From a virus (taxonomy: Duplodnaviria; Caudoviricetes), in the IMG/VR virus record IMGVR_UViG_3300042893_002153, positions 1-50,803 of that record: a stretch of DNA of 50,803 nt, one strand, 5' to 3'. The notes under the pieces were generated by a model. The model had not been told where the DNA came from and searched no databases. It saw nothing but the letters and a program-made list of their open reading frames with translations. Of the stretch, positions 1 to 50,803 are shown piece by piece; position 1 is the stretch's first letter, and each line of letters starts with the position of its first letter. The translations under genes and the position numbers were made by a program.

Positions 1-112
1 TATAATAAAATCAAGAGGTAATTATGGCTATTGAAAACAAAGAAGATTTAGTAAAAAAAGTTGCGGTGTTAGAAGACAAACTTTTACCACTCAGACAAGC
101 AAGTGAAGAACT
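1..112. repeat. Terminal overlap, copy 1 (identical to 50692-50803); circular or terminally redundant assembly
   Basis: Exact 112-nt identity with the window end, breaking inside ORF 24..428. Confidence 0.97.
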
Positions 113-428
113 TGTTCTTGTTAAAAAACAACTTGTAGACGTGTTAAAAAGCAAAGAAGAAGTTATTGCTAATGAACACACTGTAAGAAAAGAATTACAA
201 AAATTACAAGCAGAATTTGGTGGAAACATAAAAATCATTGAAGCAAAAGATAAACAAATTGAAACATTAAAAGCAGATTTAAATAAACTTGCTACATTGT
301 TTGATGAATATATTGTTGCCTATCAAGACCAAGTGAAGATGCTTGGCGTGTTCGTAAAAAATACTCAAACCGTAGAAAAATATCTAACGGTAAAAATAAA
401 TGAGTTTAATGGAGGAAATAAAAAATGA
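24..428 (+). CDS. Coiled-coil hypothetical protein in the tail-fibre region
   Basis: 134 aa, K/E/L heptad-rich; GAGG RBS; ATGA overlap with the next gene. Confidence 0.75.
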   Translation: MAIENKEDLVKKVAVLEDKLLPLRQASEELVLVKKQLVDVLKSKEEVIANEHTVRKELQKLQAEFGGNIKIIEAKDKQIETLKADLNKLATLFDEYIVAYQDQVKMLGVFVKNTQTVEKYLTVKINEFNGGNKK

Positions 429-1906
429 TTATTAAACGTTGGGACGGGTCGGCATTCGTAAAAGAATTTCCAGAAACAAAAGCGCAGTTAATTCGTAATA
501 ACGGAGATACTGAAAACATCTTTGATGGAAATGATAAATTAAAACTAAACTATTTACCAGATGCAGTATTTGATAGTTTGTATTTTGTAAACACAACAGG
601 AGATGTTTATGGTGCTACAAGTGGAAGTTTAGGAACTTTAACATGGGACGCAATCCAAAACGCTGCGAGTGCAACAAGAAGTGCCAAAGGTTCTTATTAT
701 GTTGCAGACGACCCATTTACTTTTTCTCAAACTACGACATCAACCGATTTTTCTGGAACATACATTATTGCTACATTTTCTTCTCGTGATAATGACTCAG
801 TTGGTGCGTCTGCTAATGGTGGTTCAACCGCAAATAACGTTTTAGAAGTTGGTGATTGGCTTGTTTTGACCAATTTAACGGGCGCTGGAACTGTTGGTAG
901 TCCATACGTTGCTACTTGGGCTGTGGTCAATAACGTTTATGATAATGCTACAACTTCAATTTTTGGTCTTACTCAATTATCTTCACGCACGACTTACGCT
1001 TCATTAAGTGGTAGTAACGTTGTTACTGAAAGCGTGTTAAAAACAGTTGTTGATAACGCTGCATTTGCTTCTGGAACTCACGTTCACGGAAATATTACAA
1101 ACGCTGGTGCAATCGGTTCTACAGCAACTTTACCAATCATTACTGGGGCAAGTGGTGTTTTAACGGCAGGTTCTTTTGGAACAACCGCTGGAACATTCGC
1201 ACAAGGTAATGACTCACGATTATCCGATGCAAGAACCCCAACCTCACACGTCCACGGTAATATTACCAACGTAGGTGCGATTGGTTCAACTGCAAACTTA
1301 CCAATCATTACCACAACGAGTGGTGTTTTAATTGCAGGTTCGTTTGGCACAACGGCTAATACATTTACGCAAGGTAATGACAGCCGTTTATCAGACGCAA
1401 GAACTCCAACTTCACACGTTCACGGCGACATTTCTAACGCTGGTGCGATTACAAGCACGGTTATTACTCCTGCAACAGGCGACGCAATTATTTTAAGTGA
1501 TACAAGCGCCTCTGATGCTTTAAAACGTGGTATCTCGATTGGCACAAGCACAACCACCTTCTTACGTAACGATGGAACTTGGGGAACGCCAGTAGACACA
1601 AATACAACTTATTCAGTAGCAACTTCTACCGTTTTAGGGCTTGTTGAATTGTTTAGCGATACTCAACAATCAGTAGCAGCTAACGCAGTCAGTTCGACAG
1701 CACTTAGAACGTATGGTGTCCAATTAAACTCTAACAACCAAGCCGTTGTAAACGTTCCTTGGACTGATACCGACACGGTTGCAACTGTGACTGCCTTGGG
1801 TGGTTTATCAGCAACTTCTAACTCATTTCGAATGGTTCACCCATTCTTCGTTCAAGCAGACGCACCATCTACTCCTTTAACAGGCACAATTTGGTTTGAT
1901 ATTTAG
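425..1906 (+). CDS. Tail fibre / receptor-binding-type protein with HxH repeats
   Basis: Thr/Ser/Gly-rich; three HVHG motifs; GNDSRLSDARTP repeats; ATxxxxGLxxL fibre repeats; N-term IIKRWDG and C-term P-x2-P-x-TG-x2-WFDI. Confidence 0.8.
   Translation: MIIKRWDGSAFVKEFPETKAQLIRNNGDTENIFDGNDKLKLNYLPDAVFDSLYFVNTTGDVYGATSGSLGTLTWDAIQNAASATRSAKGSYYVADDPFTFSQTTTSTDFSGTYIIATFSSRDNDSVGASANGGSTANNVLEVGDWLVLTNLTGAGTVGSPYVATWAVVNNVYDNATTSIFGLTQLSSRTTYASLSGSNVVTESVLKTVVDNAAFASGTHVHGNITNAGAIGSTATLPIITGASGVLTAGSFGTTAGTFAQGNDSRLSDARTPTSHVHGNITNVGAIGSTANLPIITTTSGVLIAGSFGTTANTFTQGNDSRLSDARTPTSHVHGDISNAGAITSTVITPATGDAIILSDTSASDALKRGISIGTSTTTFLRNDGTWGTPVDTNTTYSVATSTVLGLVELFSDTQQSVAANAVSSTALRTYGVQLNSNNQAVVNVPWTDTDTVATVTALGGLSATSNSFRMVHPFFVQADAPSTPLTGTIWFDI
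1079..1455 (+). repeat. 168-nt (56-aa) tandem repeat, two full units plus a partial third
   Basis: HVHG codons start at 1079, 1247 and 1415; protein is near-identical with many synonymous DNA changes. Confidence 0.9.
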
Positions 1907-1924
1907 TAGGGTGGTGAATGGTAT

Positions 1925-2578
1925 ATGCCAGACACTATCTTAAAACGATGGAACGGTTCTTCGTTCGAGGAACTTTATCCTAAAACAACTGTAGGTCAAA
2001 TCTCAGCAAGTGGAACGCTATCAAGTTCTACTTTTCTTCGTGGCGATGGTCAGTGGCAAACTCCTGCTACGCAATCTCATACACACGGAAATATCACTAA
2101 CGCTGGCGCGATAGGTTCAACAAGTGGTTTGGGAGTTGTTACAACAACAAGTGGGGTTTTAACAACGCGTTCAATTAGCGACAGCACGACATTAACAATT
2201 TTAGATAGTGCATCAACAAACCTTGTGACTGAACGAGATGTTTATTTTGGAACACACTATATATTTATAGATGTTAGCGCTGCGATAGCAAATTCAACAA
2301 CTTTTACAACAATGACTATTACAAGTGGTATGCGTGATTTTCTTTTGCATATTCACCAAGATTCTACAACGGGTGCAGTTGTCGCAAATATGAGTTTTAC
2401 TACGGCAAGTTCCGAAAGTATGGGAACGGCAACACCAGGCAAAACACACCGTGTTGAGTGGTCTAACGGTTCTGCGGCGCAAAGAATGAATATTGAAGTA
2501 TTTTTATCTGGAACAACTTTATCTTTTAGACACAGTTTTACAGGTGCTTCTTTGGCTTTTAGATGGTTTGGAAGATAG
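1925..2578 (+). CDS. Short distal tail fibre protein
   Basis: N-term ILKRWNG; shares FLRxDGxWxTP and HTHGNITNAGAIGST with the upstream fibre; beta-rich C-terminal head. Confidence 0.75.
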   Translation: MPDTILKRWNGSSFEELYPKTTVGQISASGTLSSSTFLRGDGQWQTPATQSHTHGNITNAGAIGSTSGLGVVTTTSGVLTTRSISDSTTLTILDSASTNLVTERDVYFGTHYIFIDVSAAIANSTTFTTMTITSGMRDFLLHIHQDSTTGAVVANMSFTTASSESMGTATPGKTHRVEWSNGSAAQRMNIEVFLSGTTLSFRHSFTGASLAFRWFGR

Positions 2579-2607: not shown

Positions 2608-2883
2608 ATGGCAGAATCAACTCTCAAACGTGTAGGCGTAAGTGGTTATAACAAACCAAAACGCACACCCTCTCACCCAAAGAAATCACATGTTGTTGTT
2701 GCGAAGGTCGGAAGAAAAGTGAAGACCATTCGTTTCGGACAACAAGGTGTAAGTGGTGCTGGAGCAAATCCAAAATCTGAAAAAGACAAAGCGAGACAAA
2801 AATCGTTCAAAGCACGTCACGGAAGAAACATTGCAAAAGGAAAGATGTCTGCAGCGTATTGGGCAGATAAGGTGAAATGGTAA
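2608..2883 (+). CDS. Small basic conserved phage protein (KTIRFGQQG / SFKARH / SAAYWA type)
   Basis: 91 aa, K/R-rich; motif set resembles a widespread aquatic-phage protein of unknown function. Confidence 0.8.
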   Translation: MAESTLKRVGVSGYNKPKRTPSHPKKSHVVVAKVGRKVKTIRFGQQGVSGAGANPKSEKDKARQKSFKARHGRNIAKGKMSAAYWADKVKW

Positions 2884-6668: not shown

Positions 6669-9600
6669 ATGGCAACACAATATTATGGGCCGATTGCACC
6701 TTTGGTCCAAGATGCTATTAACCAAGCAACCACAAAAGTAGAAAACACCTTTAAAGAAAACAGTCTTTTAATCGACCGACTTACTAACCCAACTAAATAC
6801 ATGACACCGGGCGAAATCGGTTTTGCCTTGACTAATAGTGCGGTATACGATGTGTTTAAAGGAATGACTCAATCTGTTACCGGTCTTGTTTTTGGCACAG
6901 GACTTGCTTTGTGGGATTTACTGGTTGACATTCGCAACACCGTAAATGCGCCAACCAAAGAAGCAATGTTAAAAGAAGGAGTTAGTGCAATTTATCGTTT
7001 ATCCAACAACGTGCTTACCGCTTTAGGAACAACGGGGGCGGGGTTGTTGTCGGTTGGTGCCGAAGTGCTTACACTAGGTTACGCCGATACTACGTGGGCG
7101 CAAGACTATGCAAAAAACCTTCAAGTCCTAAATCGACAATATGCTTATTATCAATCAAGAGGTCAAGATAATGTAGGTCGTTTTATGAGTGAAGCAATGG
7201 TTGCTACTGGGAACCCGTTGTATGATGCAGCGCTTTTAAACAAAGATGACCCACTTTTAAAAGACGCATTTAACCAACAAGCCTTATACGCAGAAGATTA
7301 CGAAAAAAAATTTGGGGAAAGTTTTAAAAATATTGTCAACCAATCAGCAAACATTAAAAAGTTTATTGACAAAGAAATTTTTGATACAATCGTAAAAACC
7401 GCTGGATTAAAACAACAAAAAGACATTGCAGACATGCTTTATGCTGACTCACCACTATATCAAGCGTTTTCCGGTGTTTTACAAAGCATTGGTGCTATTT
7501 TAATGGCGCAAGGACTTGCAAAATTTTCTAATGCGCAAGGTTTAACAAACCCAGAGCAATCAGCAGCACTTGCCACGGCTTATTTCGGAACACAAGTTTT
7601 TGGTAACTCTTTCGAACAAGCCATTGATAACGGCGCATCTATTTCTGACGCATATATGTTTGCCACCGCCAACGCCGTCATTGAAACAATGATTGAACAA
7701 ATTGGTGGTTTAAAACTGGGGCTTGATAAAAATATATTGCCAACAACATTTCAAGCGTTTTTAAGAAATGGTTTTGAAGAAGGTATTGAAGAAGTCATGT
7801 CTGAGTTTTTAACTCCAGGTTTTGACCTTTATTCTGTACCATTAAAAGACCAAAAAGATTTCAAACTAGACCGAATGACCGATAAAGACATTATTCAAAG
7901 AATGTTTTTTGCTTTTGCTTCGGGTGCGGTTTCTGGTGGTGTTTTTGGTGCAACCAATCAATTTATCTATAATCAATCATTAGAAGGCAAGTTTGGCATG
8001 GTTCAAGCAGCATTTAAACAAGATGTTCAAAAGGTTGGTAAAGAAAGAGCGGTTTTATATCTTCGCCAACGATTACGTGAACTTATTAAATCTTTAAACA
8101 ATCCAAACCTGCAAGGATACAAAGTTAATAAAGGGCAGGGTTACTCGCTTTCTACCTTAACGACCGCCGAAAAGATTCAGTATATTAAAAACTTAGGTTT
8201 TGGTCGTATTATTGATATCGATGTAAATGATTTAAGCCGTGGTGCTCTTGGCACAAAAGACCAACCACTGACACCAGAACAATTCGAGGACGTTTTAAAC
8301 AATGGATATTTTTCGTTTAAATTAAGAAAAGATTTTGTCATTGACGAAACGGTTTTTCAACCCATTTACAACAACCAACGAATTAGTGTTCAAGAGTGGG
8401 CAGTTAACGCGGCCAGTGGTGGTGAAACACTTAACAACTCTCGCGTTGGTCCAGGCAAACCATTTATTCCACTAATGAGAGCAAACCTTACCCCTGTTGG
8501 TAAATCTATTTTAGCAATGGCTGATAAGTCCGGCGTTCCGATTGTGGTTGTGGCAAGTGACGCTTTACAACCAGAACTAAAAAACGAAGTGGCTTTCTAT
8601 ATTAATGGTGTTATTTTCTTTAATCAAAGTGCCGAAGTTGATGCTAATACAGCACTTGCCGAAGTAAGAAAACACGAGTTAATACACTTAATCGCCCGTC
8701 GTCTTCCACAACAATATAAAGAAATAGAAGAAGAAGTTCGCTCTTTGATAGATTTTAACCAGCTGATTCAAGTAGACCCTAAAAATGGAACTATTTCACT
8801 TAACTACAATGCCGAGTTTATTAAAGGTTTGTTTACTCCCGAACAACAAAAACAGTTTTTCGATAACTTAGACACCGCGCTTGCGGATATATTAGATACA
8901 TTTGGTGGTTCCGAAAAAATATTTGCCTTAATGCGTCTTGCTCAAAATCCAGAAACTGACGCCGATACAAAGAAACGTGCTGCAAACCGCGTTCGTATCA
9001 TTACCGAATCTATTGCTGTAAGAATGGGCGAAGAAACCACGTCGTATTTTGTCGAGGCAATGGTTAAGGATTCTGCCGCTTTTGTTAGAGCCATCGAAAC
9101 ACAAAACCCAAACATTCGCGAACGCTTAAAAAACTTTGTATCAAGAATGGCCCAAATCACGCGCGAACGTCGTTTCCAAAAGCAAATGGAAAGAATCTTT
9201 GGTGCAAACGCGCCATCGGCCGCAACACTGTCAACAGGTGAAGTTAAACCAGTTGGTAAAGCCGCCGAAGTTATCGAATCCGTGGAACAAAAGATTACTG
9301 CCGCAACAAGAAAATTAGTAAAAGAAAGAAGTTCATTAGACTATTTTTATCGTAACTTCTTTGCTTCAAGAGAGTCTTTACGACAATTTATCAACCCAAC
9401 AATATTAAAGAAATACAACGAAGATATGGACCTCATATTTGAATCGCTTTCCCGCGCGATAGAAATTGACCCGTATTCTAAAGTTATGTCCATTGAAGGC
9501 ACGCAGTATAACATTGAAGACGTGTTTGCTGGAAACATGGACTTTGCTTCAAAGAAAACCGATAAACAAAAAACATCATTACAAATCTTTTCCGAAAACT

Positions 9601-12600
9601 GGAATCCAAACGAAGAACTTAACTTTATGGAATTTAACGGCCTTATTGATGCTCTTTCGGTAGATTTCGGAAATTTTTCAAATAAAGATATACAACAAAT
9701 ACAACAAGTCACAAAGAAAAAATCTGTTTACTTTTATTTTATTTTAGAAATGTATAAAACCATTCTTGAAGAAGAAACCGAAGCCTTATCAGCGGGTCTT
9801 GGAAACGCGACTGGTAAAGAAGCCGAAGAGATGAGAAAGAAACTAAAACTATTAAAAACAAGGGCCGGAATTGTATCTCTTCTTTCAAACGAAATATACC
9901 CAAGCAGACCCGTTACAAACACTTTAGATTTTGATTCAAAATATATAAACGATAATATGAGTTTAAAAGCATTTGAAGATATGGGTGCTATTTTTGGGGA
10001 CGTTTCTTACAACGGTCTTTCTTTTTTAGACGGGATTAGAAATAACAAATTAGCCGCAAGTGCTGGAGAAATTATGCTAATAGCCGCTGAAATAAGTAAA
10101 AGCGCAACATTAACTGATTACTTTAAAAAAAATGACGAATTGATTCTCGATAAAGAAACAAAAAGAAGAATTCTTATTATTGCCGAGTTCAGTATTATGA
10201 ACTATGCTAAAAACCTAATGAAGAAAAATATTGTTTCGGTTCCGTCGGAAAGGGGAACCCAAAAAGCAAGAATAATTTCAAAACTAAAAAGAGAAGCAAG
10301 ACAAGAAACGTCAGTTGTTCAAAAAACACTTTCACATGCTGCCTATAACGCAACGCAAAAACTTGCCAACTGGATTGCCAACAATCAAATAAAAGTTCCA
10401 CCATTTCTTCAAGGTGCTAATTTTATTAATAGTTCCTTTTCTACTTTTGACATCAATAACCCAGGTGGCATATATGTCGAAATAGACCTTTCAGAAGATT
10501 TAAAACAACTAAAAACTAAAAAAGAAAAACAAGAATATTTAGACATCATTAAGCAGTCTTATGACCTAATGTTACACACCTTTTTAGAAGGAACACACAT
10601 TGCTTCCAACAATAAGAAGATTAAGTTTGGTTTGGATAATTACGAATATGAAGTTGAACTATTAGAAAAAGATGTTTTAACCAAAAAATCCATGAAATCA
10701 GAAGATGTTGGACTTACGGTTTACATTTACCCAACAGTTAAAAACATTCAAGAATATATTAAAAAAATTGAAGAAAATGAAAAAGAATTAAATCAAACAA
10801 AAGAAACAAAACCTGATGTTATTGCAGAAGCAAAAAACAACTTCCAAAACATTATTTTAACAAACGAAGTATTAGATGGCGACAACCAACTAACAAGCGC
10901 CGCGGTTTTAAATAACGCACAATCTAACATAAGTAACAAAGTTATTAATCAACTGTCAAACATTATTCCAAGCATGGTTCAACCTTTGTCTGGTAAAGAA
11001 GTTGTGGCAAGTGTAAATCTTCCTTGGGGTAAAAGTGTAAAAGTATCTAACACAATGTTTGAAGCAAAAGCATTAATAGAAGAAGGACTAAGAAACGACA
11101 TTAAAAGAAGAAATATTGATGTTGAAATTGGAAAAGACGTTGAAATACGATATTTTCTTGTAAGCACGCTTTTACCAACTGGTTCGTTTTATGACACTTA
11201 TTTTAAAGACTCAAATCATTTCGGAACCGGTTATTACTTTACCCACTTAGAAGAAAGAAACATGCAAGAGTTTGATGCCAAAATGAAGACCGATTCTGGT
11301 TCTTTGTCATCATCGAAAAAGTTTTTAATTGGTTTTTTTGTTGGTAAAAGATTTATTTCTAGCAGTAAAAACCAGAATTTACCAGATTTAAAACATATTG
11401 ATAAACTTTTAAACGGAGAAGACAGTTTTGTAAAAGCATCATATCGTCTTGCTAAAAAAGAAATAAAAGATAATATTTACAACCAGTTTGACGGAATTTT
11501 CAGTTTGGAAATGAACCTTATTGACGCTGATAATTTTTATAAAAATGTAATTAAACCATTTAACCAATTCAAAGTTATTGGAACAACTTTAACCGCACCA
11601 GAAAAAGCCCTTACAAGCAGTTTTGATGAAGAAATAAGAGGTTTAATTGGAGAAATTCAAGTAAAACAACGCTCACCTTTGTCATCAGAACAAGATACAG
11701 AAATCAAAAATGAATATATTCCAGATTCAGTATTTGCTTCCGAAATGTCTTATCATCTTTTTAATTTGTTTTTTAAAGGAATGAAAAACCCATATGACAC
11801 TCCAATTACAAATATATTAAAAGAAAAACCATATCATATTGTTGCCTTAGAACGTATCGCGAAAATAACTTCAAAGAAGTCGACAGCAAACACTTACCCT
11901 TTTGAAACTTTTTTTGAAACCATAGTGAATGATGTTAAAAAAGATTTGTTGGCGGAAGAACGCGAATTTGAAGAAGAGTTCCCTTTTATTCCAACGTATT
12001 TTAAAAGCCTTACGTTAAAAGAATTTACCGCAGGTTTTTTTAAATCTCCCGAAAGTTTTAAAGAATCTAAATACCACAACAAACTAATTGGATTAGATAA
12101 TTCCTACGTTGAAATAAACCCAAAAATATGGAAAACCATTGATGACAAAATTACTCTCGATATAAAAAACATTTTTGGACTTTCCCAAGAGTTTTTTGTT
12201 TTGTTTTTACAGCAAGATTTCAGAGATGAAAATAATCAATACGACTTAGTAGCAAAAATATTTAAAAAAGTTGAAAACAATGAAGGCAATATAAGAAAAA
12301 TCATTATAGATAATATAAAGTCTATAATAGAAAATCTAAAAAAAGAACAAAAAGAAGTTGTGTTTTTTAACCGTCCAAGAGGTTACGTAGTTAGAGCGGA
12401 AAAAAGCGCAGAGGTTCCAGACGAAAGACAAACAAAACGATATAACTTGGTAAAAACTGCCTACGAAGATGTTGAAGATTCTGCTTTGGTTGTGTTTGAA
12501 AAACTCTTAAAAGATTTTGAATATGTTGAAAAAATAGATGCAGATTCTAGTTTTTGGTTACAGAACGAAAGTTTATACGATTCAATACTAAATTTAAAAT

Positions 12601-15600
12601 ATTCTGTAAGTCTTTACACCAATTACAAGACAACAAGAAAACTTATCGAGGTATTTAATAAAGATTTTACAGACTTTAAAAAAATACACCACAGAACCGC
12701 CAGAGAAATCTTTGAACTCAGAGAGCGGTTCTATGAAACCCAAACAAAAGTAGTGGTTTTAGGACACCCAGCATACAACAAAAGCGGAATTTTGTATCAC
12801 GCGTCGAAATTTTTAGATTTTACTTCTATTTTTTTGAATAAAGACGTAAATACGGGACAAGGTTATAACACGTACTATACTTACCTTATGGGATATCTAG
12901 ATTTTGAAAATAATGATTTTTTAACAATGTTTGCAGAGTTTGCAAAAGCACGTCTTGTTAACGATACCGTGCTCAACAATAATGACATGTTTAAAAACGG
13001 CGCTATTGCTAACAGAGTAATGTTAGATATGAAAAACGAATTTCGAGGTTATAAAGAAGATTTACAAAATGGAAAAATATCTTATAAATACATGATAAAC
13101 CCTTTTCAAGAATTTTTAAAAATTTATGATTTTATCGGTGTTGATTTAAGAGAAATTTCTAAAGTTATTCCAGAAATTGCCGAAAAAGGAAGCACAGTTT
13201 TATATCTTTCGCAAAACACGGCGGAAATACTTTCAAAAGACAATTACTCTGAGTTAAAAGATGAAGATGGTGTAAAAAAATCTTTCACCATTGGTGCAAC
13301 CAAAGAAGAGATTCCTTTATTAACGGTTCAAGTTGGAAACCAAGAAGGTTCTTATTTAAGTAGTGATTCGGTAGAAAAACTTCTACAAGAACCCTTTAAG
13401 ATTTACACACTCAATACCACTATTAATTTTGAAAGTATTGGCCTTGGTATTAAAAACACAATAAACTCATATACTGATAATTTACCGAATGAAGCAGAAA
13501 AAATTCTTGTTCAAACAAAGGCACCACAATTAAACTATCCCGTAATAAAAATATCCCCAAGCAAAATGGAAACATTCAGTCAAGACTCGACGGGGGTTTA
13601 TTTAAACACGGACGTTGCGAGAAAATTAATAAATGCCCACCCACTTTTAAAAGACAGTGAAGGAAGAATTTTAAGACTTTATCACGGAACAAAAACTCTC
13701 TTTAAAGATTTTTCTTACGCGTTTTTACAAAAAGTTGGCCTCGCTTATGGTCCAGGCTTTTATTTTGCCAGCGACATTGAAACAAGTAGTGATTATGCAA
13801 GATTTGATGTTACAACCCCAAAAAGTGAAGATAAAAGTAACACAGCACTAAAACAAGAAGGCGTTTTAAAAGAAGTTTATCTGAATATTAAGAAACCAAT
13901 CTATTTTGAAGACGACAGAAGTGTTGACCGAATCGCAAAAATGGGTAACACAGTTTTTTCGAGAAACGAATTCGCTTCTATTTTTAAAGAACTTGTTGCA
14001 AAAGAATTGGATACGAACGGTAACCTTCCAGAATTAGTGAAAAAGGTCATGTTTGAATTTTATTTTGAAGACCCACTTACTTATGGTATATTTGACATTA
14101 AAAAATTAAAAACCCCCGAAGAGTTTGCTGCTTTTTTATTAAATAATTCTGGTGGGTTTACTCAATATGATTCTTTTTCAAACCAAGAAGAATTAGCGGT
14201 TCCAGGGGTTATGCTTTCAACTCTCGTTCGGCGATGGAGAACTTATTTAATTACAAAATATCTTTTACAAAACCGAGTTATTACAGAGAATGAATTAGAT
14301 GAAATTCTAAAAAACAACAAAGAAGAAACCGTTCAAGGGCATTTCAGAAAATCTGTTGGTTTTACACACGAATCAATTTTAGATGACAAAATACAAAAAT
14401 ATTTACAAAAACAAGATATCGAAAACTTTTATTACAACATTTGGGGTAATTCGTTTAAAGATGTTTTAACCGCGACCACTGACGCAACGGGTTACGATGG
14501 TATTGTTAACCGAGCGGAAAGAGAAGGTCATATTATTGTTGCTTTCAACCCAAAACAAATTATCGATGTCAATGACGCTGTTTCTATTAGAGAAACGTCG
14601 GAATTTGACCCTTCTACCGTCGTTCAAGAATTTAACCCAAACAGTATTACAGTTATCCAACCATACTTTGACGCACCTTATATTCAATCTTCATTTAAAA
14701 AAGCGTTTAATTTATCCCCTGTTGTATACGCTATTGTTCCCGCGCTTTGGATTAACAGTAGGGAAAATCAAAGGCTCGTCGACCCAGATAAGAAACTGAT
14801 TTATGTTGAGCGTTTAACCACACCATTACCAATGGACACTAGTGATAACTTTGGTAAGTTTGCTGGCGCACGTGCTATTAACGCCGCTATTATGATTTGG
14901 GCAGATAAAACACACCCTGTATTTAAAGATTATCAAGATTTACGTGAATCACTAGAAACTAAGAAACGATATGAAACCAACGACTTTGTTTATCGTTTTA
15001 TGAAGAATAGAAATACCGAAGAAGACGCAAAAGTTAAAAAAACATTTACTGATTCTGATGGTAAAACCTCTATTAGTTTTGCCGTTCCTTATTTAGGAGT
15101 TGGTGCAAGTTACAACACAAAGATTAATGATTTTGACCAAATTCCTTTGACTGGTAAATACATTGTTATTAAAGCCTCGTCGCCACAGGTTTTAGAACGA
15201 TTAAACAAGATTGATTTTGGTAAGTTGGCAGAAAATGGTGCTGTTTTAAAGGGTAAAGGGTTCCGTGCTTCCGAACTTATTGAAGAATATAATCGTATTA
15301 AAGAAAACTCCGAAGACTTATTTGATACTCTCGACAAGGGTGAAACTGTATATAAACGTGTTTCTAAAAAGAAAACAACCGCCCGAAAGATTAACGCCCA
15401 AGAAGAATCGGACATCAGAAGTGTGTTTGGCGATAAAATTATCCGTGAAATGCTTACGGTTGACGAAAATGGCAACTTCCAAGTTAAAGCCAATTCTATT
15501 CCTACCCGTGTTAAAGCAGAAGCGAAGATTAAATTAGACGGCGCAGAGTTTTCAGAAAAAACACACGCCATTAATATCCCTTTTGAAAATTTACCAGAAG

Positions 15601-18600
15601 TCGTAACGGGTTATAAATATGAAGTTTTAACCGTTCAAGAACTGTCTTCTACACCTTATCTCAAACTGTTTTATGACATTATGAAACAAACCAATATCAC
15701 TTTTGTTTTTACAAGAAATTGGAAGGGTAAAAAGAACGTAAGAGGAATTTCTTTCCATCAAAAAGTCGCTTTTATTATTATTGACAACATCAAAAAGGGT
15801 TTAGAAGGTAAACCACTCGAATTCCAAAAACGATTAGCAACGATTTTAATTCATGAAAACTTACATGAGTTAGAAATGGAAGAAAATTTACATCACGAAC
15901 TAGGGCAAGAACTTGCTTTACTGATGTTTTCCGTCAATTCATCTACCAACACAATGGAAATTTCACCTTTTGGTAAAAACTTCTTCGATGAAATCTTTGC
16001 ACAGGGCGAACCACAATTACCAAACTCATGGGAATCGACTGGCTTTATGGAATTCTTACGTTATATGGAAGGCTATAAATACGCAAGAAAATACCTTAAC
16101 GCCGACGATATTTCACGCATTTTACGCACACCAAAAACAGTATTAAAAACCGAAAAAGATGGGGACAGTAAGGCAAGATTAAAAGGCGAGTTAGTTGCTC
16201 AAATCGGTGGTTATTTAATGGCAGACATGGAAACAATGACTAAGGTTTATGGACTAAAACTAACCGACGCACAAACGCTCACTCTGTTCCAAACTATTTC
16301 TAAAATGCAAGCCAATCCTAATAACACAGCTACTGGTAAAGCATTCTTGATGATTACCTTTGAAAAATATAAAGAACTTTTTGATAACTACATCAAGGGA
16401 TTACAAGCACAGTTCCCAAGCCAAAAGCGGTTCAGCGTTAAAACTATTAATGAATTCATTGCTAAATTCACTGATAACGAATTTACAACCAAGGTCGATT
16501 TAATAAGAACCTACGTTAAAGAACGCGAAGCAGGTCATCGTCGCAAGGCAACCATCGCCCTAGACAAAATCATTTATGTTGCCTCTTTATTAAGCAAGAC
16601 AGTTCAAGAAGCAACGGAAGGCTTTATCGCTTTAAGAAAAGAATTTGTCGACTTACAAGAAAACTCGATGTATCTTTTAAACCTTGAAAATTCCGATGTG
16701 GTTAAATTAAGTGATAATACCATCGAAAAACTAATTAAACAAATTAGAAGTAGATTTAAACAACTTCGCGACGGCACCGAACTCGAAACCATTATTCTGA
16801 ACAGAAAAGATTTAACCAAACAAGACCCAAACAAAGATTTCGAATTAGAAGAATGGTTCCTTGAAGCAAAAGAAATTTTAGAAGGAATCAAAGAAAAGTA
16901 TGACGTAATTCCAGATGAAGTCATTAAAATATTTGGCATTAAAGAAAAACTCGAAGTGTTCCAAAGCCTGACCCAACTTTCCGCAACTCTGCAAGCAATG
17001 GAAACCTTATTTAACAACGACGGAAAATGGGATAAACAAAACGTTACTTTCGCGGAACACCTTGTTGCCGAACTAGAAAAAATTGAAGATGTATTAACAC
17101 CATATTTTACGGCTGTAAACTATGTCAGAACAGGCGCGTTAAACCCAATCGTAACCCCAATGGCAGTTTTCGGTGCGCAAGTTCAAGTAAGGACCAGATT
17201 AGAAAACAAAGAAATAGAACTATTAAAACTTTATTTCAAACAAAAGATTAACTCTGCGGTCAATAAATTGATGGAAGCACGTCTTCAAAAGGATTCTCCA
17301 GCAAGTCCATTTATTTTAAAGATGACGAAAATAATTGAAGATATGAGTGTTTCTATCAACAAAACTAACGTTACGGTTCAAGAAATTGCCAAAGAATTAA
17401 GTGCTAAGGTTTTTATTTTTGTCGACGAAGCAAACGCCGCCATCAGAAAAAACTTTGTGGGTATAGAAAGACAAGAAGCGTATGAACGATTATCGCAAGT
17501 AACCACACTACTTTCCCGTGGTATTGGTGGCATGCTTATGGAATTATCTTTGATGGCTCGCGACACAACCATTTTAGATAATGCGGTTTCAAAGGGTTAT
17601 TTAACACAAGAACAAATGGACCAAATGATTGAGTTTTATAAAAAAAGAAAACTTACATTTTCCGCATCTGCTTTCGCAAGTGGGGTTGCTAGAATTATCA
17701 ATGCTTTTGCGACAAGATACGAAAGTATATTTGGCATGGGCGAAAACGTTACAAACGATGAATATGTAGTCAATATGCACAAACAAATTACAAACCTTGG
17801 CGAAAACAAAGTAAGACCAGTGGTTGAAAAGTTGTGGCAAATCCTGACACCGCAAGATTTCCTTGGTAGATTATCCGATTTGTTTGAAGGTAAAGTGGAT
17901 TTATTCCCTGCCATTCTAAAACTATATGAAGAAGCAACTGAACGTTCCGAAAAAATTTCGGCGGATTTCCACAAAAAATATATTGAGTTTATCAAAAACA
18001 ACCCTGGCATTCAAAAATATTCCATTGAAGAAACGCTTGATGTTTCAACCGACTATTTAATTGGGTTGCCAACTGATACTTTTCAAAAATTAGTGGAAGA
18101 AGTTAAAGTAGAAATGAAAGCCGAAAAAGAACGAATTCAAGCAATGGGCGAAGACGATACATTAAAAGAAGAATATAAAGTTTTAAAAGAAGAAAAAGTA
18201 AAACTTCAAGAAGAAAAGAAGAAGTATCAACGGGGAAGCGCTAATTGGTTAAAAATAAATCAAGATATCCGTGTTTTGACCGCTCAGATGAGTGCAAAAA
18301 GAACTGAATTAAACAATCAAAAAGACCAAATTAAACTAGCCAAAGAATCATTTAAAAACAACGATTCCGACAGCAGGTTGAAAGTTAAAATTGCAGAGTT
18401 CTTGGTTGATAATCCAAACATCACGCTTAATCAAAACTTACCAAAAGGCACCATCGCTGCTCTGTATTTAATGGTTGCGCGTGAAGTTGAAATGCTTGAA
18501 ATCTTCGAAAAGGCGAGAGAAACAGATACAGATACACTTATTAAACCAACAAACCACTTCCGTTTTAGTAACCAAATTAACATTTTGGATAACCGAATTC

Positions 18601-20747
18601 TACGCGAAGTTGGATATAAAGAAGCAATCTCAAAAACCCAACCCTTCACTATTTACGAAACAAGTAAGGTTGCTTTAAGAGATTACCTCAAAGGTTTATT
18701 ATCTGACCCTCGTGACCAAATTATTTTAGATTTTGCGAAGATGATGTTTGACGACAATTATGAATTGTTTAATGAAATATTTTTAGCCAAATTCAAAACA
18801 ACCTTACCAAGACAATCAATCTATATTCCGTTTGCCACTCTTTTTAGTGACTATGGTCGAGAATTAGAACTTGCTTTCGCGAGTCGATACAACGCTGGGG
18901 TTCCAGATGGTGTTGTTACGGAAACAACCATTGGGGCAAACACGTATTTAAAAGCAGAAAACATCTTTACTATTATTGAAAACCATACAAGACAAGCGGC
19001 TAAATATAGTTACGAAAGATTGTTAACTGACTTCCAAAATATTTTAGTCAATAAAGCAGCGACCATTTTCACTCTCCAAGACCGTATCACTAACTCTTCA
19101 AGTTTCCTTGGAGCGCCAAACAACTTCCTTGATTACTTCCAAGCAATGATGGTTGCTGTTATTGGTTATTCACCAATAGGCGATTCTAAAATTGAAAAAA
19201 TTGCCAGCGACTTACTTCGCCTTGGACGTGGAGCAAGAATGGCATTCTCTCCAAGTGTAGCTATTAAACAGTTAGGCTCATTAAACACTATTAGTATCAA
19301 GGCACCAGGCTGGAAAAAAGAATATCAATTTAACGCATTAGAATTATATAAGAACTTTTTAACCGTTAAACTTTGGAGAAATAAATTTTATGCCAAACTT
19401 AAAGAAATCAATCCAAACTTTTACTTACGCGTTGTCTTTGGAAGTATCCCAGATTTAGCAAAAGCAATCGATGTGTCATTTATAATCCAGGCTCAAAACA
19501 CAATCGAAAAACTAGTCGAACTTGGTGTGTCAGTTGCAGGAAGAATGGATAGTGATATTATCCTTTCTGCATTCAAAACCTATTTTGACAAGATTCAAAA
19601 AGCAAACCCAAACATAACGGAAGAAGAAGTGTTTCAATTAGCAAACATTGGTGTGAAAAAAGTTCTTTTATACGGTGTCGCAAACACTTCACGAGCATAT
19701 CGTTCTCCGTTTGCTAACAGTCAAACATTCGCAGGCAAGTTCGCTTCTCGTTTCCAATCCGAAAACAACTTACAATGGAGTGCTATTTTAAGATACTATT
19801 GGGAACTTCTAAATAATGTTCCTGGTGCAGATAAAAAATTACTACAAAGCATCATATCCTTACTGATGTCGGCGTTCTTCTCGGGCATGGTTACATTTGC
19901 GTTAGGTTCTGCCCGTAATGTATACGACGAAGAAGACAAGTTCTTTGAATTGTTTGTGAATGAAATCATTTGGGGCAACCTTGTCGGTTCCGTTCCTTTA
20001 TTAAACATTCTAACCAGTTCTATTGAATTTGACCCAAAGACGTTCCTTCGAGTTGGTTATGAACCTGAATTGCCTGGTATTGGCGAATTAGTCAAAGTTG
20101 CAGAAATCATTAGTTCGGGATTAACCATGCAGGACGGAAGTTTAAACATGCGTAAGGTTCTTCGTATCTTTGAACAAGCGTTACAACCTTTCGGTGTTCC
20201 GTTAGCAAGTATTTCAAGATTAGTTCAAACTATATTCGGTTTTGGTGCCAAACTTGGTAACCCAACATCGATGGAGGCTGTCCAGTGGTTCGCTGGTCAA
20301 ACCGACGCTGTTGCTCTCACACAAGCCATCAAAGCAGGCGACCGTAACAGAATCAACTATTACATCAGTCAGGTTTATAGCAGCGTCCCAGTCCAGAAGG
20401 AAATTATGCGTATTCTAAACTCCGATTCCAATATTAGACTGTCACTAAAGTCTGCTAATTTCTTCACAGCTGAAAAAGATGGAGTGACAAGCACTTATGA
20501 TATTCCGCAAGCAACCCGTTCCTTTTATACAACATTGACTATGCAGGCTTTATCGCGTTTAATTATTCGCGGCGGATACACAAGAATGAACGATACTCAA
20601 AAAACAGCCATAGTCCAACGAGTCATCAATTACTATTGGAACCATATGCGTAATTATGTAATCAACGAAGATGGAAAAGCAAAAATAGCAAGTAGTTCTG
20701 GGTTGTCCGATGTCATTCAAAGAGCCATTGACTATGAAAAAAGATAG
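6669..20747 (+). CDS. Giant (4692 aa) polyvalent virion/ejection protein with an ART-PolyVal-type ADP-ribosyltransferase and two zincin metallopeptidase motifs
   Basis: LYHGT...YGPGFYF...VYLNIKKP...GYDGIV...VAFNPKQI (about 13650-14565); HELIH at 8673; HENLH at 15852; Ala/Gly-rich N-terminal ejection-protein-like segment. Confidence 0.85.
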   Translation: MATQYYGPIAPLVQDAINQATTKVENTFKENSLLIDRLTNPTKYMTPGEIGFALTNSAVYDVFKGMTQSVTGLVFGTGLALWDLLVDIRNTVNAPTKEAMLKEGVSAIYRLSNNVLTALGTTGAGLLSVGAEVLTLGYADTTWAQDYAKNLQVLNRQYAYYQSRGQDNVGRFMSEAMVATGNPLYDAALLNKDDPLLKDAFNQQALYAEDYEKKFGESFKNIVNQSANIKKFIDKEIFDTIVKTAGLKQQKDIADMLYADSPLYQAFSGVLQSIGAILMAQGLAKFSNAQGLTNPEQSAALATAYFGTQVFGNSFEQAIDNGASISDAYMFATANAVIETMIEQIGGLKLGLDKNILPTTFQAFLRNGFEEGIEEVMSEFLTPGFDLYSVPLKDQKDFKLDRMTDKDIIQRMFFAFASGAVSGGVFGATNQFIYNQSLEGKFGMVQAAFKQDVQKVGKERAVLYLRQRLRELIKSLNNPNLQGYKVNKGQGYSLSTLTTAEKIQYIKNLGFGRIIDIDVNDLSRGALGTKDQPLTPEQFEDVLNNGYFSFKLRKDFVIDETVFQPIYNNQRISVQEWAVNAASGGETLNNSRVGPGKPFIPLMRANLTPVGKSILAMADKSGVPIVVVASDALQPELKNEVAFYINGVIFFNQSAEVDANTALAEVRKHELIHLIARRLPQQYKEIEEEVRSLIDFNQLIQVDPKNGTISLNYNAEFIKGLFTPEQQKQFFDNLDTALADILDTFGGSEKIFALMRLAQNPETDADTKKRAANRVRIITESIAVRMGEETTSYFVEAMVKDSAAFVRAIETQNPNIRERLKNFVSRMAQITRERRFQKQMERIFGANAPSAATLSTGEVKPVGKAAEVIESVEQKITAATRKLVKERSSLDYFYRNFFASRESLRQFINPTILKKYNEDMDLIFESLSRAIEIDPYSKVMSIEGTQYNIEDVFAGNMDFASKKTDKQKTSLQIFSENWNPNEELNFMEFNGLIDALSVDFGNFSNKDIQQIQQVTKKKSVYFYFILEMYKTILEEETEALSAGLGNATGKEAEEMRKKLKLLKTRAGIVSLLSNEIYPSRPVTNTLDFDSKYINDNMSLKAFEDMGAIFGDVSYNGLSFLDGIRNNKLAASAGEIMLIAAEISKSATLTDYFKKNDELILDKETKRRILIIAEFSIMNYAKNLMKKNIVSVPSERGTQKARIISKLKREARQETSVVQKTLSHAAYNATQKLANWIANNQIKVPPFLQGANFINSSFSTFDINNPGGIYVEIDLSEDLKQLKTKKEKQEYLDIIKQSYDLMLHTFLEGTHIASNNKKIKFGLDNYEYEVELLEKDVLTKKSMKSEDVGLTVYIYPTVKNIQEYIKKIEENEKELNQTKETKPDVIAEAKNNFQNIILTNEVLDGDNQLTSAAVLNNAQSNISNKVINQLSNIIPSMVQPLSGKEVVASVNLPWGKSVKVSNTMFEAKALIEEGLRNDIKRRNIDVEIGKDVEIRYFLVSTLLPTGSFYDTYFKDSNHFGTGYYFTHLEERNMQEFDAKMKTDSGSLSSSKKFLIGFFVGKRFISSSKNQNLPDLKHIDKLLNGEDSFVKASYRLAKKEIKDNIYNQFDGIFSLEMNLIDADNFYKNVIKPFNQFKVIGTTLTAPEKALTSSFDEEIRGLIGEIQVKQRSPLSSEQDTEIKNEYIPDSVFASEMSYHLFNLFFKGMKNPYDTPITNILKEKPYHIVALERIAKITSKKSTANTYPFETFFETIVNDVKKDLLAEEREFEEEFPFIPTYFKSLTLKEFTAGFFKSPESFKESKYHNKLIGLDNSYVEINPKIWKTIDDKITLDIKNIFGLSQEFFVLFLQQDFRDENNQYDLVAKIFKKVENNEGNIRKIIIDNIKSIIENLKKEQKEVVFFNRPRGYVVRAEKSAEVPDERQTKRYNLVKTAYEDVEDSALVVFEKLLKDFEYVEKIDADSSFWLQNESLYDSILNLKYSVSLYTNYKTTRKLIEVFNKDFTDFKKIHHRTAREIFELRERFYETQTKVVVLGHPAYNKSGILYHASKFLDFTSIFLNKDVNTGQGYNTYYTYLMGYLDFENNDFLTMFAEFAKARLVNDTVLNNNDMFKNGAIANRVMLDMKNEFRGYKEDLQNGKISYKYMINPFQEFLKIYDFIGVDLREISKVIPEIAEKGSTVLYLSQNTAEILSKDNYSELKDEDGVKKSFTIGATKEEIPLLTVQVGNQEGSYLSSDSVEKLLQEPFKIYTLNTTINFESIGLGIKNTINSYTDNLPNEAEKILVQTKAPQLNYPVIKISPSKMETFSQDSTGVYLNTDVARKLINAHPLLKDSEGRILRLYHGTKTLFKDFSYAFLQKVGLAYGPGFYFASDIETSSDYARFDVTTPKSEDKSNTALKQEGVLKEVYLNIKKPIYFEDDRSVDRIAKMGNTVFSRNEFASIFKELVAKELDTNGNLPELVKKVMFEFYFEDPLTYGIFDIKKLKTPEEFAAFLLNNSGGFTQYDSFSNQEELAVPGVMLSTLVRRWRTYLITKYLLQNRVITENELDEILKNNKEETVQGHFRKSVGFTHESILDDKIQKYLQKQDIENFYYNIWGNSFKDVLTATTDATGYDGIVNRAEREGHIIVAFNPKQIIDVNDAVSIRETSEFDPSTVVQEFNPNSITVIQPYFDAPYIQSSFKKAFNLSPVVYAIVPALWINSRENQRLVDPDKKLIYVERLTTPLPMDTSDNFGKFAGARAINAAIMIWADKTHPVFKDYQDLRESLETKKRYETNDFVYRFMKNRNTEEDAKVKKTFTDSDGKTSISFAVPYLGVGASYNTKINDFDQIPLTGKYIVIKASSPQVLERLNKIDFGKLAENGAVLKGKGFRASELIEEYNRIKENSEDLFDTLDKGETVYKRVSKKKTTARKINAQEESDIRSVFGDKIIREMLTVDENGNFQVKANSIPTRVKAEAKIKLDGAEFSEKTHAINIPFENLPEVVTGYKYEVLTVQELSSTPYLKLFYDIMKQTNITFVFTRNWKGKKNVRGISFHQKVAFIIIDNIKKGLEGKPLEFQKRLATILIHENLHELEMEENLHHELGQELALLMFSVNSSTNTMEISPFGKNFFDEIFAQGEPQLPNSWESTGFMEFLRYMEGYKYARKYLNADDISRILRTPKTVLKTEKDGDSKARLKGELVAQIGGYLMADMETMTKVYGLKLTDAQTLTLFQTISKMQANPNNTATGKAFLMITFEKYKELFDNYIKGLQAQFPSQKRFSVKTINEFIAKFTDNEFTTKVDLIRTYVKEREAGHRRKATIALDKIIYVASLLSKTVQEATEGFIALRKEFVDLQENSMYLLNLENSDVVKLSDNTIEKLIKQIRSRFKQLRDGTELETIILNRKDLTKQDPNKDFELEEWFLEAKEILEGIKEKYDVIPDEVIKIFGIKEKLEVFQSLTQLSATLQAMETLFNNDGKWDKQNVTFAEHLVAELEKIEDVLTPYFTAVNYVRTGALNPIVTPMAVFGAQVQVRTRLENKEIELLKLYFKQKINSAVNKLMEARLQKDSPASPFILKMTKIIEDMSVSINKTNVTVQEIAKELSAKVFIFVDEANAAIRKNFVGIERQEAYERLSQVTTLLSRGIGGMLMELSLMARDTTILDNAVSKGYLTQEQMDQMIEFYKKRKLTFSASAFASGVARIINAFATRYESIFGMGENVTNDEYVVNMHKQITNLGENKVRPVVEKLWQILTPQDFLGRLSDLFEGKVDLFPAILKLYEEATERSEKISADFHKKYIEFIKNNPGIQKYSIEETLDVSTDYLIGLPTDTFQKLVEEVKVEMKAEKERIQAMGEDDTLKEEYKVLKEEKVKLQEEKKKYQRGSANWLKINQDIRVLTAQMSAKRTELNNQKDQIKLAKESFKNNDSDSRLKVKIAEFLVDNPNITLNQNLPKGTIAALYLMVAREVEMLEIFEKARETDTDTLIKPTNHFRFSNQINILDNRILREVGYKEAISKTQPFTIYETSKVALRDYLKGLLSDPRDQIILDFAKMMFDDNYELFNEIFLAKFKTTLPRQSIYIPFATLFSDYGRELELAFASRYNAGVPDGVVTETTIGANTYLKAENIFTIIENHTRQAAKYSYERLLTDFQNILVNKAATIFTLQDRITNSSSFLGAPNNFLDYFQAMMVAVIGYSPIGDSKIEKIASDLLRLGRGARMAFSPSVAIKQLGSLNTISIKAPGWKKEYQFNALELYKNFLTVKLWRNKFYAKLKEINPNFYLRVVFGSIPDLAKAIDVSFIIQAQNTIEKLVELGVSVAGRMDSDIILSAFKTYFDKIQKANPNITEEEVFQLANIGVKKVLLYGVANTSRAYRSPFANSQTFAGKFASRFQSENNLQWSAILRYYWELLNNVPGADKKLLQSIISLLMSAFFSGMVTFALGSARNVYDEEDKFFELFVNEIIWGNLVGSVPLLNILTSSIEFDPKTFLRVGYEPELPGIGELVKVAEIISSGLTMQDGSLNMRKVLRIFEQALQPFGVPLASISRLVQTIFGFGAKLGNPTSMEAVQWFAGQTDAVALTQAIKAGDRNRINYYISQVYSSVPVQKEIMRILNSDSNIRLSLKSANFFTAEKDGVTSTYDIPQATRSFYTTLTMQALSRLIIRGGYTRMNDTQKTAIVQRVINYYWNHMRNYVINEDGKAKIASSSGLSDVIQRAIDYEKR

Positions 20748-45112: not shown

Positions 45113-45388
45113 ATGAAAAGTAAAAACAAAAAACTATTTGAAGTCGAAATTAAATCTATGGCGCTTATTAACGAAGGCAAGAAAAGTCTAATTACTTACT
45201 TTCAAGGTGGCACCAAAAAACGCATCGTGAGTAATGTTCAAAAGATATTTCCTCAATATACCAAAATAGAAGACAAACCAGTGGTCAACATCACACGTAT
45301 TACCATGGAAGAATATGAAGAACGCAAAAATGGTGGTGCAATTAAGCAAAACCTCGAAATGATTCAAACAAAAGGAGATATTTTATGA
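45113..45388 (+). CDS. Hypothetical protein, probably from a leaderless mRNA
   Basis: TGtTATAAT (45097-45105) sits 7 nt before ATG; no SD. Confidence 0.6.
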   Translation: MKSKNKKLFEVEIKSMALINEGKKSLITYFQGGTKKRIVSNVQKIFPQYTKIEDKPVVNITRITMEEYEERKNGGAIKQNLEMIQTKGDIL

Positions 45389-46275
45389 CCGTAAAAGAAG
45401 TCAAACTCCAAGCCTTACGTATTATGTTTGCAGACAGTGATGTCGAGTTTTCAACTAACGAATATGATGCTGGCACACTAAACACCAACGCAAACACAAG
45501 AGAAAAATTAGTTCGTATGGACGATTCTATTCGTCGTGGCATTGACCTTTATAACACACTTGTAGAACAAGAAACTGCCATCATTGAAAACTTGTTTTTA
45601 GCTTCTTCGGGTGGAGTATACGCAAATACCATTGATATTTCCGGGGTAAGCAACCTTAATTATCCAACCCGTGTGGACGTTTTTCTTTATCAACACCAAT
45701 ACGAAACAGTTGAAGCCTACGTTAGAACTGGACAAACTGCTTTTGTTTCGACGTGGTTAAGTTTAACTAGTGTTAGTGGAAATGCTTTAACCCCCGAAAC
45801 CGACAAAGTATATGTAGTTATTGGTTCAGCGACTAGTTCTTATATTAATCAAAAATACATTTGGGACGGAACTGCTTTTGTTGTTAATTCAAGAGAAGAA
45901 TTATGGAATTCAAAAAATCAAATTAATTATGTGTATGATTCTATCAATAGGAAGATATATTTTCAAGACGTTGATTATGCAAAGTATTATAACGAATATG
46001 ATGTTTACACCATTACTTTTAGAATCTGGTATAAAGTGCTTAAACAAAACATTAGCACTGGAAATCAAGACAGCATAAACTTAGACTCTTTAAAAATACC
46101 TTCAGATGTTCAAAATATGCTACCGATATATATTAAAGGTGAGTTATACGAAGAAGACGATTTTGTTGTGGCACAAACCGCAAAACAAGAGTTCGCAAGA
46201 TTTTTACAAACCGTTCGTCAACCATTTAATAAAGTCCAAACCAAGGTGAGTCGAGCAAAGGTTTTTAATAAATGA
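45385..46275 (+). CDS. Head-tail adaptor-like protein with an inserted fibre-type beta module
   Basis: Helical N- and C-termini (LPIYIKGELYEEDD); internal LTPETDKVYVV...YIWDGTAFV. Confidence 0.6.
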   Translation: MTVKEVKLQALRIMFADSDVEFSTNEYDAGTLNTNANTREKLVRMDDSIRRGIDLYNTLVEQETAIIENLFLASSGGVYANTIDISGVSNLNYPTRVDVFLYQHQYETVEAYVRTGQTAFVSTWLSLTSVSGNALTPETDKVYVVIGSATSSYINQKYIWDGTAFVVNSREELWNSKNQINYVYDSINRKIYFQDVDYAKYYNEYDVYTITFRIWYKVLKQNISTGNQDSINLDSLKIPSDVQNMLPIYIKGELYEEDDFVVAQTAKQEFARFLQTVRQPFNKVQTKVSRAKVFNK

Positions 46276-50682: not shown

Positions 50683-50688
50683 ATATTG

Positions 50689-50697
50689 TGATATAAT
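50689..50697 (+). promoter_or_regulatory. Extended -10 promoter TGaTATAAT for the fibre genes
   Basis: Consensus match upstream of GAGG RBS. Confidence 0.6.
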
Positions 50698-50803
50698 AAA
50701 ATCAAGAGGTAATTATGGCTATTGAAAACAAAGAAGATTTAGTAAAAAAAGTTGCGGTGTTAGAAGACAAACTTTTACCACTCAGACAAGCAAGTGAAGA
50801 ACT
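50692..50803. repeat. Terminal overlap, copy 2
   Basis: Identical to 1-112. Confidence 0.97.

Follow-up and report, generated by a model that had tools for sequence, protein, structure and literature searches.

Introduction

How can tail fibre proteins that are encoded by separate, neighbouring genes be joined into a single fibre? This question is raised by a locus of the IMG/VR virus record IMGVR_UViG_3300042893_002153 (Duplodnaviria; Caudoviricetes), whose whole stretch of 50,803 nucleotides (nt) was analysed and is called the window below. Three of its genes, here named A, B and C, carry short recurrent motifs at the ends of their proteins. By "hook" we mean the motif P-x-T-G-x-[IL]-W-[FY]-D-[IL], which forms the last ~10 residues of a segment, and by "eye" the N-terminal beta-hairpin [IL]-[ILK]-[KR]-[KR]-W-[ND]-G-x-x-[FW]-x-E-[LF]. 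Since A has a hook only, B an eye and a hook, and C an eye only, the order of the segments would be A, B, C.

The analysis, for which all the evidence is computational, led us to consider it probable (roughly 0.7) that a single fibre is made up of A, B and C as consecutive segments, joined hook to eye. The hook of one segment would lie antiparallel to the first strand of the eye hairpin of the next segment, and hook and eye would together complete one three-stranded meander, a unit that is contiguous elsewhere. C would be the exchangeable distal piece, presumably receptor-binding. A, B and C are presumably tail fibre proteins; the segments would be trimeric, with A attached to the tail.

Results

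Hooks and eyes are conserved at the termini of A, B and C

A preliminary description of the locus, made from the letters alone, had reported the terminal sequences of the three proteins, and all of them were found in the translations at their coordinates (Table 1). The C-terminal end of A reads ...NQPQAPMTGDLWFDI (GDLWFDI), and B begins with MIIKRWDGSAFVKEFPET (MIIKRWDG) and ends in ...DAPSTPLTGTIWFDI (GTIWFDI). When all six-frame open reading frames (ORFs) of the window with a length of at least 60 amino acids (aa) were scanned, the motifs occurred in 3 of 119, namely A, B and C, and at their termini only. As a control we used 78 IMG/VR loci of diverse phages that share the fibre repeat of B. 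Three of their 459 ORFs matched, all of them in L106, which is a contig of the window's own lineage; the other 456 control ORFs were without the motifs.

Relatives in IMG/VR were few (L002/L005/L008/L014/L106, which are one contig; L006/L013; L015; L016). The pooled locus set comprised the window, four IMG/VR relatives and 38 metagenome loci obtained in a scan with the B alignment. An eye-first ORF was observed 8-25 nt downstream of B in all 32 loci in which the 3' end of B is visible, and 31 of these 32 downstream eyes had the aromatic residue, the exception being L065 (VTLKRKTA). W-type hook ends were present in 29 of the 32 B proteins, which represent 31 clusters at 90% identity. In the A slot, i.e., two genes upstream of B, where the proteins are 65-666 aa long, an aromatic hook end was found in 37 of 40 loci. 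The preliminary description had linked the two terminal motifs to adjacent genes, and this co-occurrence was borne out by the loci.

In the protein collections, 2682 B homologues were found at E ≤0.001 among 8000 candidates. According to a regular expression, 55 of the 120 B homologues listed begin with an eye and also end in a hook. A further 11 of the 120 matched the hook only, mostly because their eyes are variants such as MIIKRWT or MIIKRWS; 7 matched the eye only (WLDIN ends, truncations and the protein P0007, which is discussed below); and 47 had neither motif and shared only the internal repeats. In an alignment of 51 B sequences, conservation peaked in the bin of the first 15 residues (0.83); it was 0.75 for the last 13 residues, compared to 0.25-0.5 in the middle.

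The eye codons vary synonymously at nearly every conserved position of the C eye (11 loci) and from codon 5 on in the B eye (14 loci). Because the codons vary in this way while the residues stay, selection acts on the protein. Moreover, where eyes have loop insertions, these sit precisely at the N-G turn (KRWNPTLNSGAGGFEEL, KRWDATLNAGAGGFVKE), which is where a hairpin would be expected to tolerate them. The types of hook and eye also go together: WFDI ends accompany MPDT in the window, L028 and P0007, and WYDI[NTA] ends accompany MPNT in 10 loci. In the most divergent locus, L065 (ORFs 264..551, 948..2036 and 2056..), the hooks read DLFIDYD and DFIIDVD and the eyes ITLKRVID and VTLKRKTA. The aromatic residue is absent from both hooks and both eyes, as if all partners had changed together in this one lineage.

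The eye of C occurs on many other proteins. A profile of the C-type eye retrieved 1657 proteins at E ≤0.001 from 1.84 billion representatives. Among the 150 best matches, 69 were eye-first proteins of 119-2185 aa with very diverse C-termini, and none of the 150 ended in a hook. Counted by regular expression, the eye-first set was 59 in the strict and 67 in the loose version (the latter probably includes one spurious member, P0253), and the tails of these 67 fell into 54 crude clusters. The remaining matches among the 150 best were to the second half of the eye profile (TFLRGDG.W..P), with up to 22 repeats in giant proteins. The earlier idea that receptor-binding segments are exchangeable modules is supported by this diversity. 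By comparison of sequences, conservation, synteny and module diversity could be demonstrated for the system.

The hook of B is predicted to pair with the eye of C

We modelled a complex of three copies of B residues 431-493 and three copies of C residues 1-55, using our own alignments A5 (50 rows) and A4 (38 rows). The ipSAE (interaction prediction score from aligned errors) values were 0.86, 0.87 and 0.87, compared to 0.01 for the best of three controls. For the partners, the predicted local distance difference test score (pLDDT) was 87 or higher, and 97% or more of the contacts were common to the runs. The mark applied to complexes is reached by 58 of 80 solved complexes and by 2 of 110 mismatched pairs, a calibration that holds only roughly here. 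The predicted interface comprises B residues 472, 476, 480-481 and 484-493 and C residues 2-11, 14, 17 and 19. In the tightest pairs (W490-K7, F491-L6, I489-R8, D492-I5 and T488-W9) the sum i+j is constantly 497, and therefore the B hook is antiparallel to the first strand of the C eye in the model, like chain ends joined by a hairpin.

A confident interface between hook and eye, as foreseen in the preliminary description, is thus what the model contains, at B484-493 and C2-11, 14, 17 and 19. The proposal that the fibres are chained by strand complementation can be kept for the predicted pairing of B with C, whereas its second part, that the halves fold only together, finds no support here: an isolated eye would probably already form a hairpin, and it is only the hook of A that was predicted with low confidence when taken alone. 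In the AlphaFold2 (AF2) monomer model of A, the terminal hook residues 138-142 had pLDDT values <50, i.e., they were not confidently placed. Prediction and conservation together support a B-C joint, and an A-B joint would be built in the same way by analogy.

The proposed split module has contiguous counterparts

In other phage fibres the module P-x-x-P-x-T-G-x-L-W-F-D...Y-Y-D-G-x-W-V-E is one continuous chain, whereas here the chain is broken in the first turn. A tblastn search with the hook alignment revealed that in the fibres of L009 and L010 the hook sequence runs straight into a Y-Y-D-G-x-W hairpin (PESPVTGALWFDSDDGKVYVYYDGFWVEIG). A second hook-hairpin copy is present in L009/L010 at residues ~105-140, which makes two copies in 210 aa. 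Similar contiguous units are found at the N-termini of P0067, P0068 and P0073, and the bacterial secreted repeat proteins P0203, P0218, P0231 and P0236 contain repeated eye-like W-[ND]-G hairpins, each after a ...PVVAWxD strand. When a profile of the contiguous module was compared with the PDB, the designed propeller blades 'Cake' were matched with a whole-sequence E of 1.3e-4, the single stretches being insignificant. The other weak matches were the TCERG1 WW domain (E 0.18), PRP40 (E 3) and a DUF2793 protein, 8rk3 (E 7.6). All these PDB similarities are below significance and to be taken as leads only.

The preliminary description had also placed an apparently intact relative of the module in a 296-aa protein of the window that it called the adaptor. 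Translation confirmed the sequence of this segment (LTPETDKVYVVIGSATSSYINQKYIWDGTAFVV), but its assignment to the module is not supported: the segment lies in a hypervariable insert that is not shared by L002, L049, L056 and L060, and the AF2 model of the 296-aa protein was uninformative (mean pLDDT 32). Its WDG[ST]AFV likeness may be a common hairpin motif. The name "adaptor" itself is at best provisional, as the 296-aa protein received no family assignment in Pfam or PHROGs.

P0068, which is the fibre of another lineage, has a hook-like end (...NGDIWMV); the locus closest to it, L066, is cut off by the end of its contig.

Organisation of the locus

Table 1. Coordinates of the fibre genes, their terminal motifs and the neighbouring elements in the window
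Feature	Coordinates	Strand	Description
Gene A	50254..50682	+	142 aa; proposed proximal fibre piece; hook at end, no eye at start
Contiguous hook-like and eye-like unit inside A	50494..50607	+	LPQDLTPYNDTFIFIK-NNQN-VVTEVYYISNG-TAILTRF
Hook of A	50638..50679	+	QPQAPMTGDLWFDI, then TAA stop
Coiled-coil protein	24..428	+	134 aa; between A and B; stop overlaps B start (ATGA)
Eye-like tail of coiled-coil protein	393..425	+	KINEFNGGNKK, then stop
Gene B	425..1906	+	493 aa; proposed middle fibre piece; eye at start, hook at end
Eye of B	425..484	+	MIIKRWDGSAFVKEFPETKA
Fibre repeat in B, three copies	1079..1459	+	S/T-H-V-H-G-N-I-T-N-x-G-A-I-G-S-T...; PHROG tail-protein matches here
Hook of B	1862..1903	+	APSTPLTGTIWFDI; its residues 484-493 in predicted interface with eye of C
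B-C spacer	1904..1924	+	TAG TAG stops, GGTGGTGA ribosome-binding-like site, then ATG of C
Gene C	1925..2578	+	217 aa; proposed distal piece; eye, one fibre repeat, variable C-terminal domain, no hook
Eye of C	1925..1987	+	MPDTILKRWNGSSFEELYPKT (MPDTILKRWNG); interface residues 2-11, 14, 17, 19 predicted
Segment LTPETDKVYVVIGSATSSYINQKYIWDGTAFVV	45787..45885	+	in 296-aa protein 45385..46275; earlier called intact relative

The two ends of the window overlap by 112 nt, which implies a circular contig of ~50.7 kb. On the circular map the order is the 296-aa protein, a 1323-aa protein (46272..50243), A, the coiled-coil gene, B and C. A and C could not be assigned to a family in Pfam or PHROGs, and neither could the coiled-coil protein or the proteins of 296 and 1323 aa; in Pfam, A, B and C had no family that reached or came close to the cut-off, and in PHROGs B matched repeat-based "tail protein" families only.

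The AF2 monomer model of A (mean pLDDT 69.8) consists of a helix at residues 35-70 with strands after it; a Foldseek search of this model against the PDB gave no match at E ≤0.001 (best E 0.79). The contiguous hook-like and eye-like unit inside A was predicted as three consecutive strands (91-96, 102-109 and 112-116) with a pLDDT of ~81. Short variants of A (106-107 aa) in L049, L056 and L063 end in ...NLTYFDEE/D, aligned to TFIFIK of the window's A; the latter runs on beyond this point with NNQNVVTEVYYISNGTAILTRF...GDLWFDI, entering a predicted strand-turn-strand-turn-strand. The stop codon behind the hook of A is followed by a 33-nt spacer. This spacer (50683..50715) contains TGTGATATAAT, an extended -10-like sequence that L002 and L006 have conserved in the corresponding spacer. 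A consensus promoter scan found no plus-strand site in the spacer, and TGTGATATAAT was not enriched in the window (2 matches at ≤2 mismatches, a number reached in 25 of 100 shuffles).

The coiled-coil gene separates A and B throughout the relatives, with its stop codon running into the start codon of B in 27 of 35 loci. Pfam returned weak coiled-coil matches only, all below the cut-off. The eye-like tail of the protein is retained in the sense that 34 of 35 related loci have [FY]N among the final 12 residues; in L065 the FN is also missing from this tail. Judged by its sequence, the coiled-coil protein might provide a third docking element, cap a hook or help in assembly.

The C-terminal domain of C differs in L002 (C of 251 aa) and in L006 (C of at least 882 aa). 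The fibre repeat S-H-[VT]-H-G-N-I-T-N-x-G-A-I-G-S-T...T-T-S-G-V-L...G-N-D-S-R-L-S-D-A-R-T-P, three copies of which lie in B, is present once in C (~2075..2170), and the same S-H-[VT]-H-G-N-I-T-N repeat is common to the 78 IMG/VR loci and to actinophage minor tail proteins, i.e., to many unrelated phages. Another element, S-x-T-F-L-R-[GN]-D-G-x-W-x-T-P, is found both in C (residues 33-47, 2021..2065) and in B (residues 376-389), and up to 22 copies of it occur in giant proteins of up to 3236 aa.

The window encodes phage functions (the large terminase, a primase-helicase and others), and its genetic code is the standard one. One single ORF of 4692 aa (6669..20747) occupies more than a quarter of the genome. 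The phage group is an uncultured, abundant lineage of ~50 kb. Gene C had no match among 50,697 phage records, and no cultured relative with C was found; gene B matched cultured phage records via its internal repeats only (7 actinophage records). Downstream of C, the gene at 2608..2883 encodes a 91-aa basic protein that matches PHROG 7595 (E 4.6e-39). Within the first 6 kb, it alone has DNA matches to marine podophages in culture, namely phages of Pelagibacter, Prochlorococcus and Roseobacter, and in one of the matching cultured records the overlapping features include the annotation "ribosomal L37ae protein family".

Discussion

Observations that weigh against the proposed hook-eye chain

Several observations weigh against a fibre joined hook to eye. 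Three B proteins of the locus set end differently, namely in AIGLEW (L039), AIGFEY (L044) and DFIIDVD (L065), and the A slot has three exceptions as well, L045 and L065 with variants that lack W or Y, and L048 with GLFYKQN. The correlations between hook and eye types are confounded by shared descent, and L015 and L043 are exceptions to the pairing of WYDI[NTA] with MPNT. The score of the complex is the model's own confidence, obtained with unpaired alignments, and the set-up of three plus three chains is outside the calibration of the tool. A hidden Markov model of the bacterial contiguous units matched the C eye (11.4 bits) and the B eye (2.6 bits) and not the hooks. Among 120 longer proteins that share the C-terminal region of B, there was no B-C fusion with an internal hook followed by an eye, although this is weak evidence. 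No solved structure of the motif could be found by sequence, and B, C and the L009 fibre had only chance-level matches when compared with PDB sequences. Finally, the label "tail fibre" is based only on the PHROG tail-protein repeat matches and on gene position.

Alternative explanations of the conserved termini

The termini might dock, but on other partners: the eye on the tail or the coiled-coil protein, and the hook on the eye-like tail of the coiled-coil protein, with A, B and C forming separate or branched fibres. The constant position of the coiled-coil gene between A and B, its translational coupling to B and the KI..FNG end of its product would all be in line with such docking. On the other hand, the interface between the B hook and the C eye was predicted in hairpin register and with a score far above that of the controls, and two hooks and two N-terminal eyes, with A carrying a hook only and C an eye only, are what a linear chain fits. 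We consider docking on other partners unlikely. It seems distinctly improbable that the termini are kept for nucleic-acid reasons, be it translation start, coupling or a use as recombination linkers for module exchange. Codons 1-4 of B (ATG ATT ATT AAA), which overlap the coiled-coil stop, indeed show no DNA variation in 14 of 14 loci, and there has clearly been exchange of middle and distal modules. However, the codons of the C eye and those of the B eye from codon 5 on vary synonymously with fixed residues, the variants of the motifs retain the hairpin pattern, and the hook lies at the 3' ends of genes, where a start signal is unneeded beyond the ribosome-binding site of the spacer itself.

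We rejected the possibility that B and C are one protein, produced by stop-codon read-through or through a reassigned TAG, and that the split is an annotation artefact; its probability is very small. In the window B and C share the same frame and are 18 nt apart, with TAG TAG and five codons (GGT GGT GAA TGG TAT) between them, and P0007 (ENA, 704 aa) reads ...TGTIWFDIQQGGEWYMPDTILKRWNG..., which corresponds to TAG TAG GGT GGT GAA TGG TAT ATG if TAG is read as Q. Yet the frame and the stop context are not conserved between the window, L002 and L006: the latter two have TAA stops, their spacers measure 14 and 16 nt, and the frame of C is offset from that of B by 2 and 1 (0 in the window). Across the 32 loci the B-C spacers range from 8 to 25 nt, and the hook of A is followed by TAA. 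TAG is moreover an ordinary stop here, as among 22 selected plus-strand ORFs of the window TAA ends 9, TAG 8 and TGA 5, and the tandem TAG TAG precedes the ribosome-binding-like GGTGGTGA. P0007, with QQGGEWY at the junction, would most simply be a gene call with TAG read as Q on a contig of 2.6 kb, and it advises caution with fused "fibre" entries in metagenome protein sets. A chance likeness of short termini is the least credible of the explanations. The motifs are short, and hairpins of the W-[ND]-G type are common among beta motifs, as the repeats in P0203, P0218, P0231 and P0236 illustrate; but the termini are conserved over 31 distinct B clusters, none of the 456 ORFs from unrelated loci carries them, and only 3 of the 119 window ORFs do.

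Implications of a hook-eye joint

Starting from the fibre joined hook to eye, a more elaborate scheme can be sketched, although as a whole it is tentative and rather doubtful. Two orthogonal pairs, the hook of A with the B eye MIIK[RK]W and the hook of B with the C eye and its short N-terminal extension, would program a self-limiting three-piece fibre. The joint would have been born by fission of a three-stranded beta module at its first hairpin turn. Re-fusion would be possible, as the long A variants suggest, so hairpin turns would be the sites at which segments are acquired, lost and exchanged. The coiled-coil protein, being co-translated, would cap a hook temporarily or act as its matchmaker.

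If the hook-eye chain is real, about 10 plus 20 terminal residues that complete one small sheet would make a connector that is unusually compact and portable. Such a joint would explain how a constant chassis can go together with swapped distal domains in this phage group; eye-first proteins have dozens of different C-termini. The motifs also provide a sequence rule for finding fibre pieces in metagenomes, namely a gene ending in ...W-F-D-I and a next gene starting with M..I-L-K-R-W-N-G. In addition, hook and eye are a defined pair of short tags and as such a candidate protein-joining device.

Comparison with known systems

In chaperone-usher pili, the strand of a neighbouring subunit completes the fold, which results in a non-covalent head-to-tail chain. 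The pilin has an Ig-like fold without the G strand, its N-terminal extension serves as the donor, and assembly involves a periplasmic chaperone and an usher. The resemblance of A-B-C to these pili would be one of mechanism only: no pilin, chaperone or usher families were found in the scanned proteins with Pfam and PHROGs, and the locus is a phage structural module. A literature search (supplements excluded) for tail fibres with strand complementation, strand augmentation or donor strands found nothing relevant.

In the long tail fibre of T4, host recognition is located on the distal piece. The accessible parts of two sources describe this fibre as a (gp34)3 proximal rod, the gp35 kneecap and a (gp36)3-(gp37)3 distal rod, joined end to end (10.64898/2026.03.06.709160; PMC12143355). 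Like gp34-gp37, the genes of our locus are adjacent. Their order is conserved among the relatives, and end-to-end joining is predicted here for B and C. Unlike the situation in our locus, the T4 hinge is a separate monomeric kneecap, gp35; and, according to Pfam and PHROGs, A, B and C are unrelated in sequence to gp34-gp37. The same parts of 10.64898/2026.03.06.709160 and PMC12143355 do not describe a joint in which termini pair as strands, and the gp36-gp37 joint is unresolved there.

A functional analogy is offered by podophages that infect Klebsiella (KP32, K11 and KP34), in which, according to the accessible part of the source, a conserved N-terminal peptide of the second receptor-binding protein (RBP2) docks on the branching domain of RBP1, so that the distal protein can be exchanged (PMC13352976). 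As in KP32-type RBPs, a conserved N-terminal docking peptide, here the eye, is combined with a variable distal part. The partner in the KP32 type is an internal globular branching domain, which gives a branch, whereas the partner predicted here is an extreme C-terminal strand, which would give a linear chain; no Pfam or PHROG match to a T4 gp10-like branching domain was found in A or B, and the two systems are unrelated in sequence. Multi-protein fibres and docking peptides are already known.

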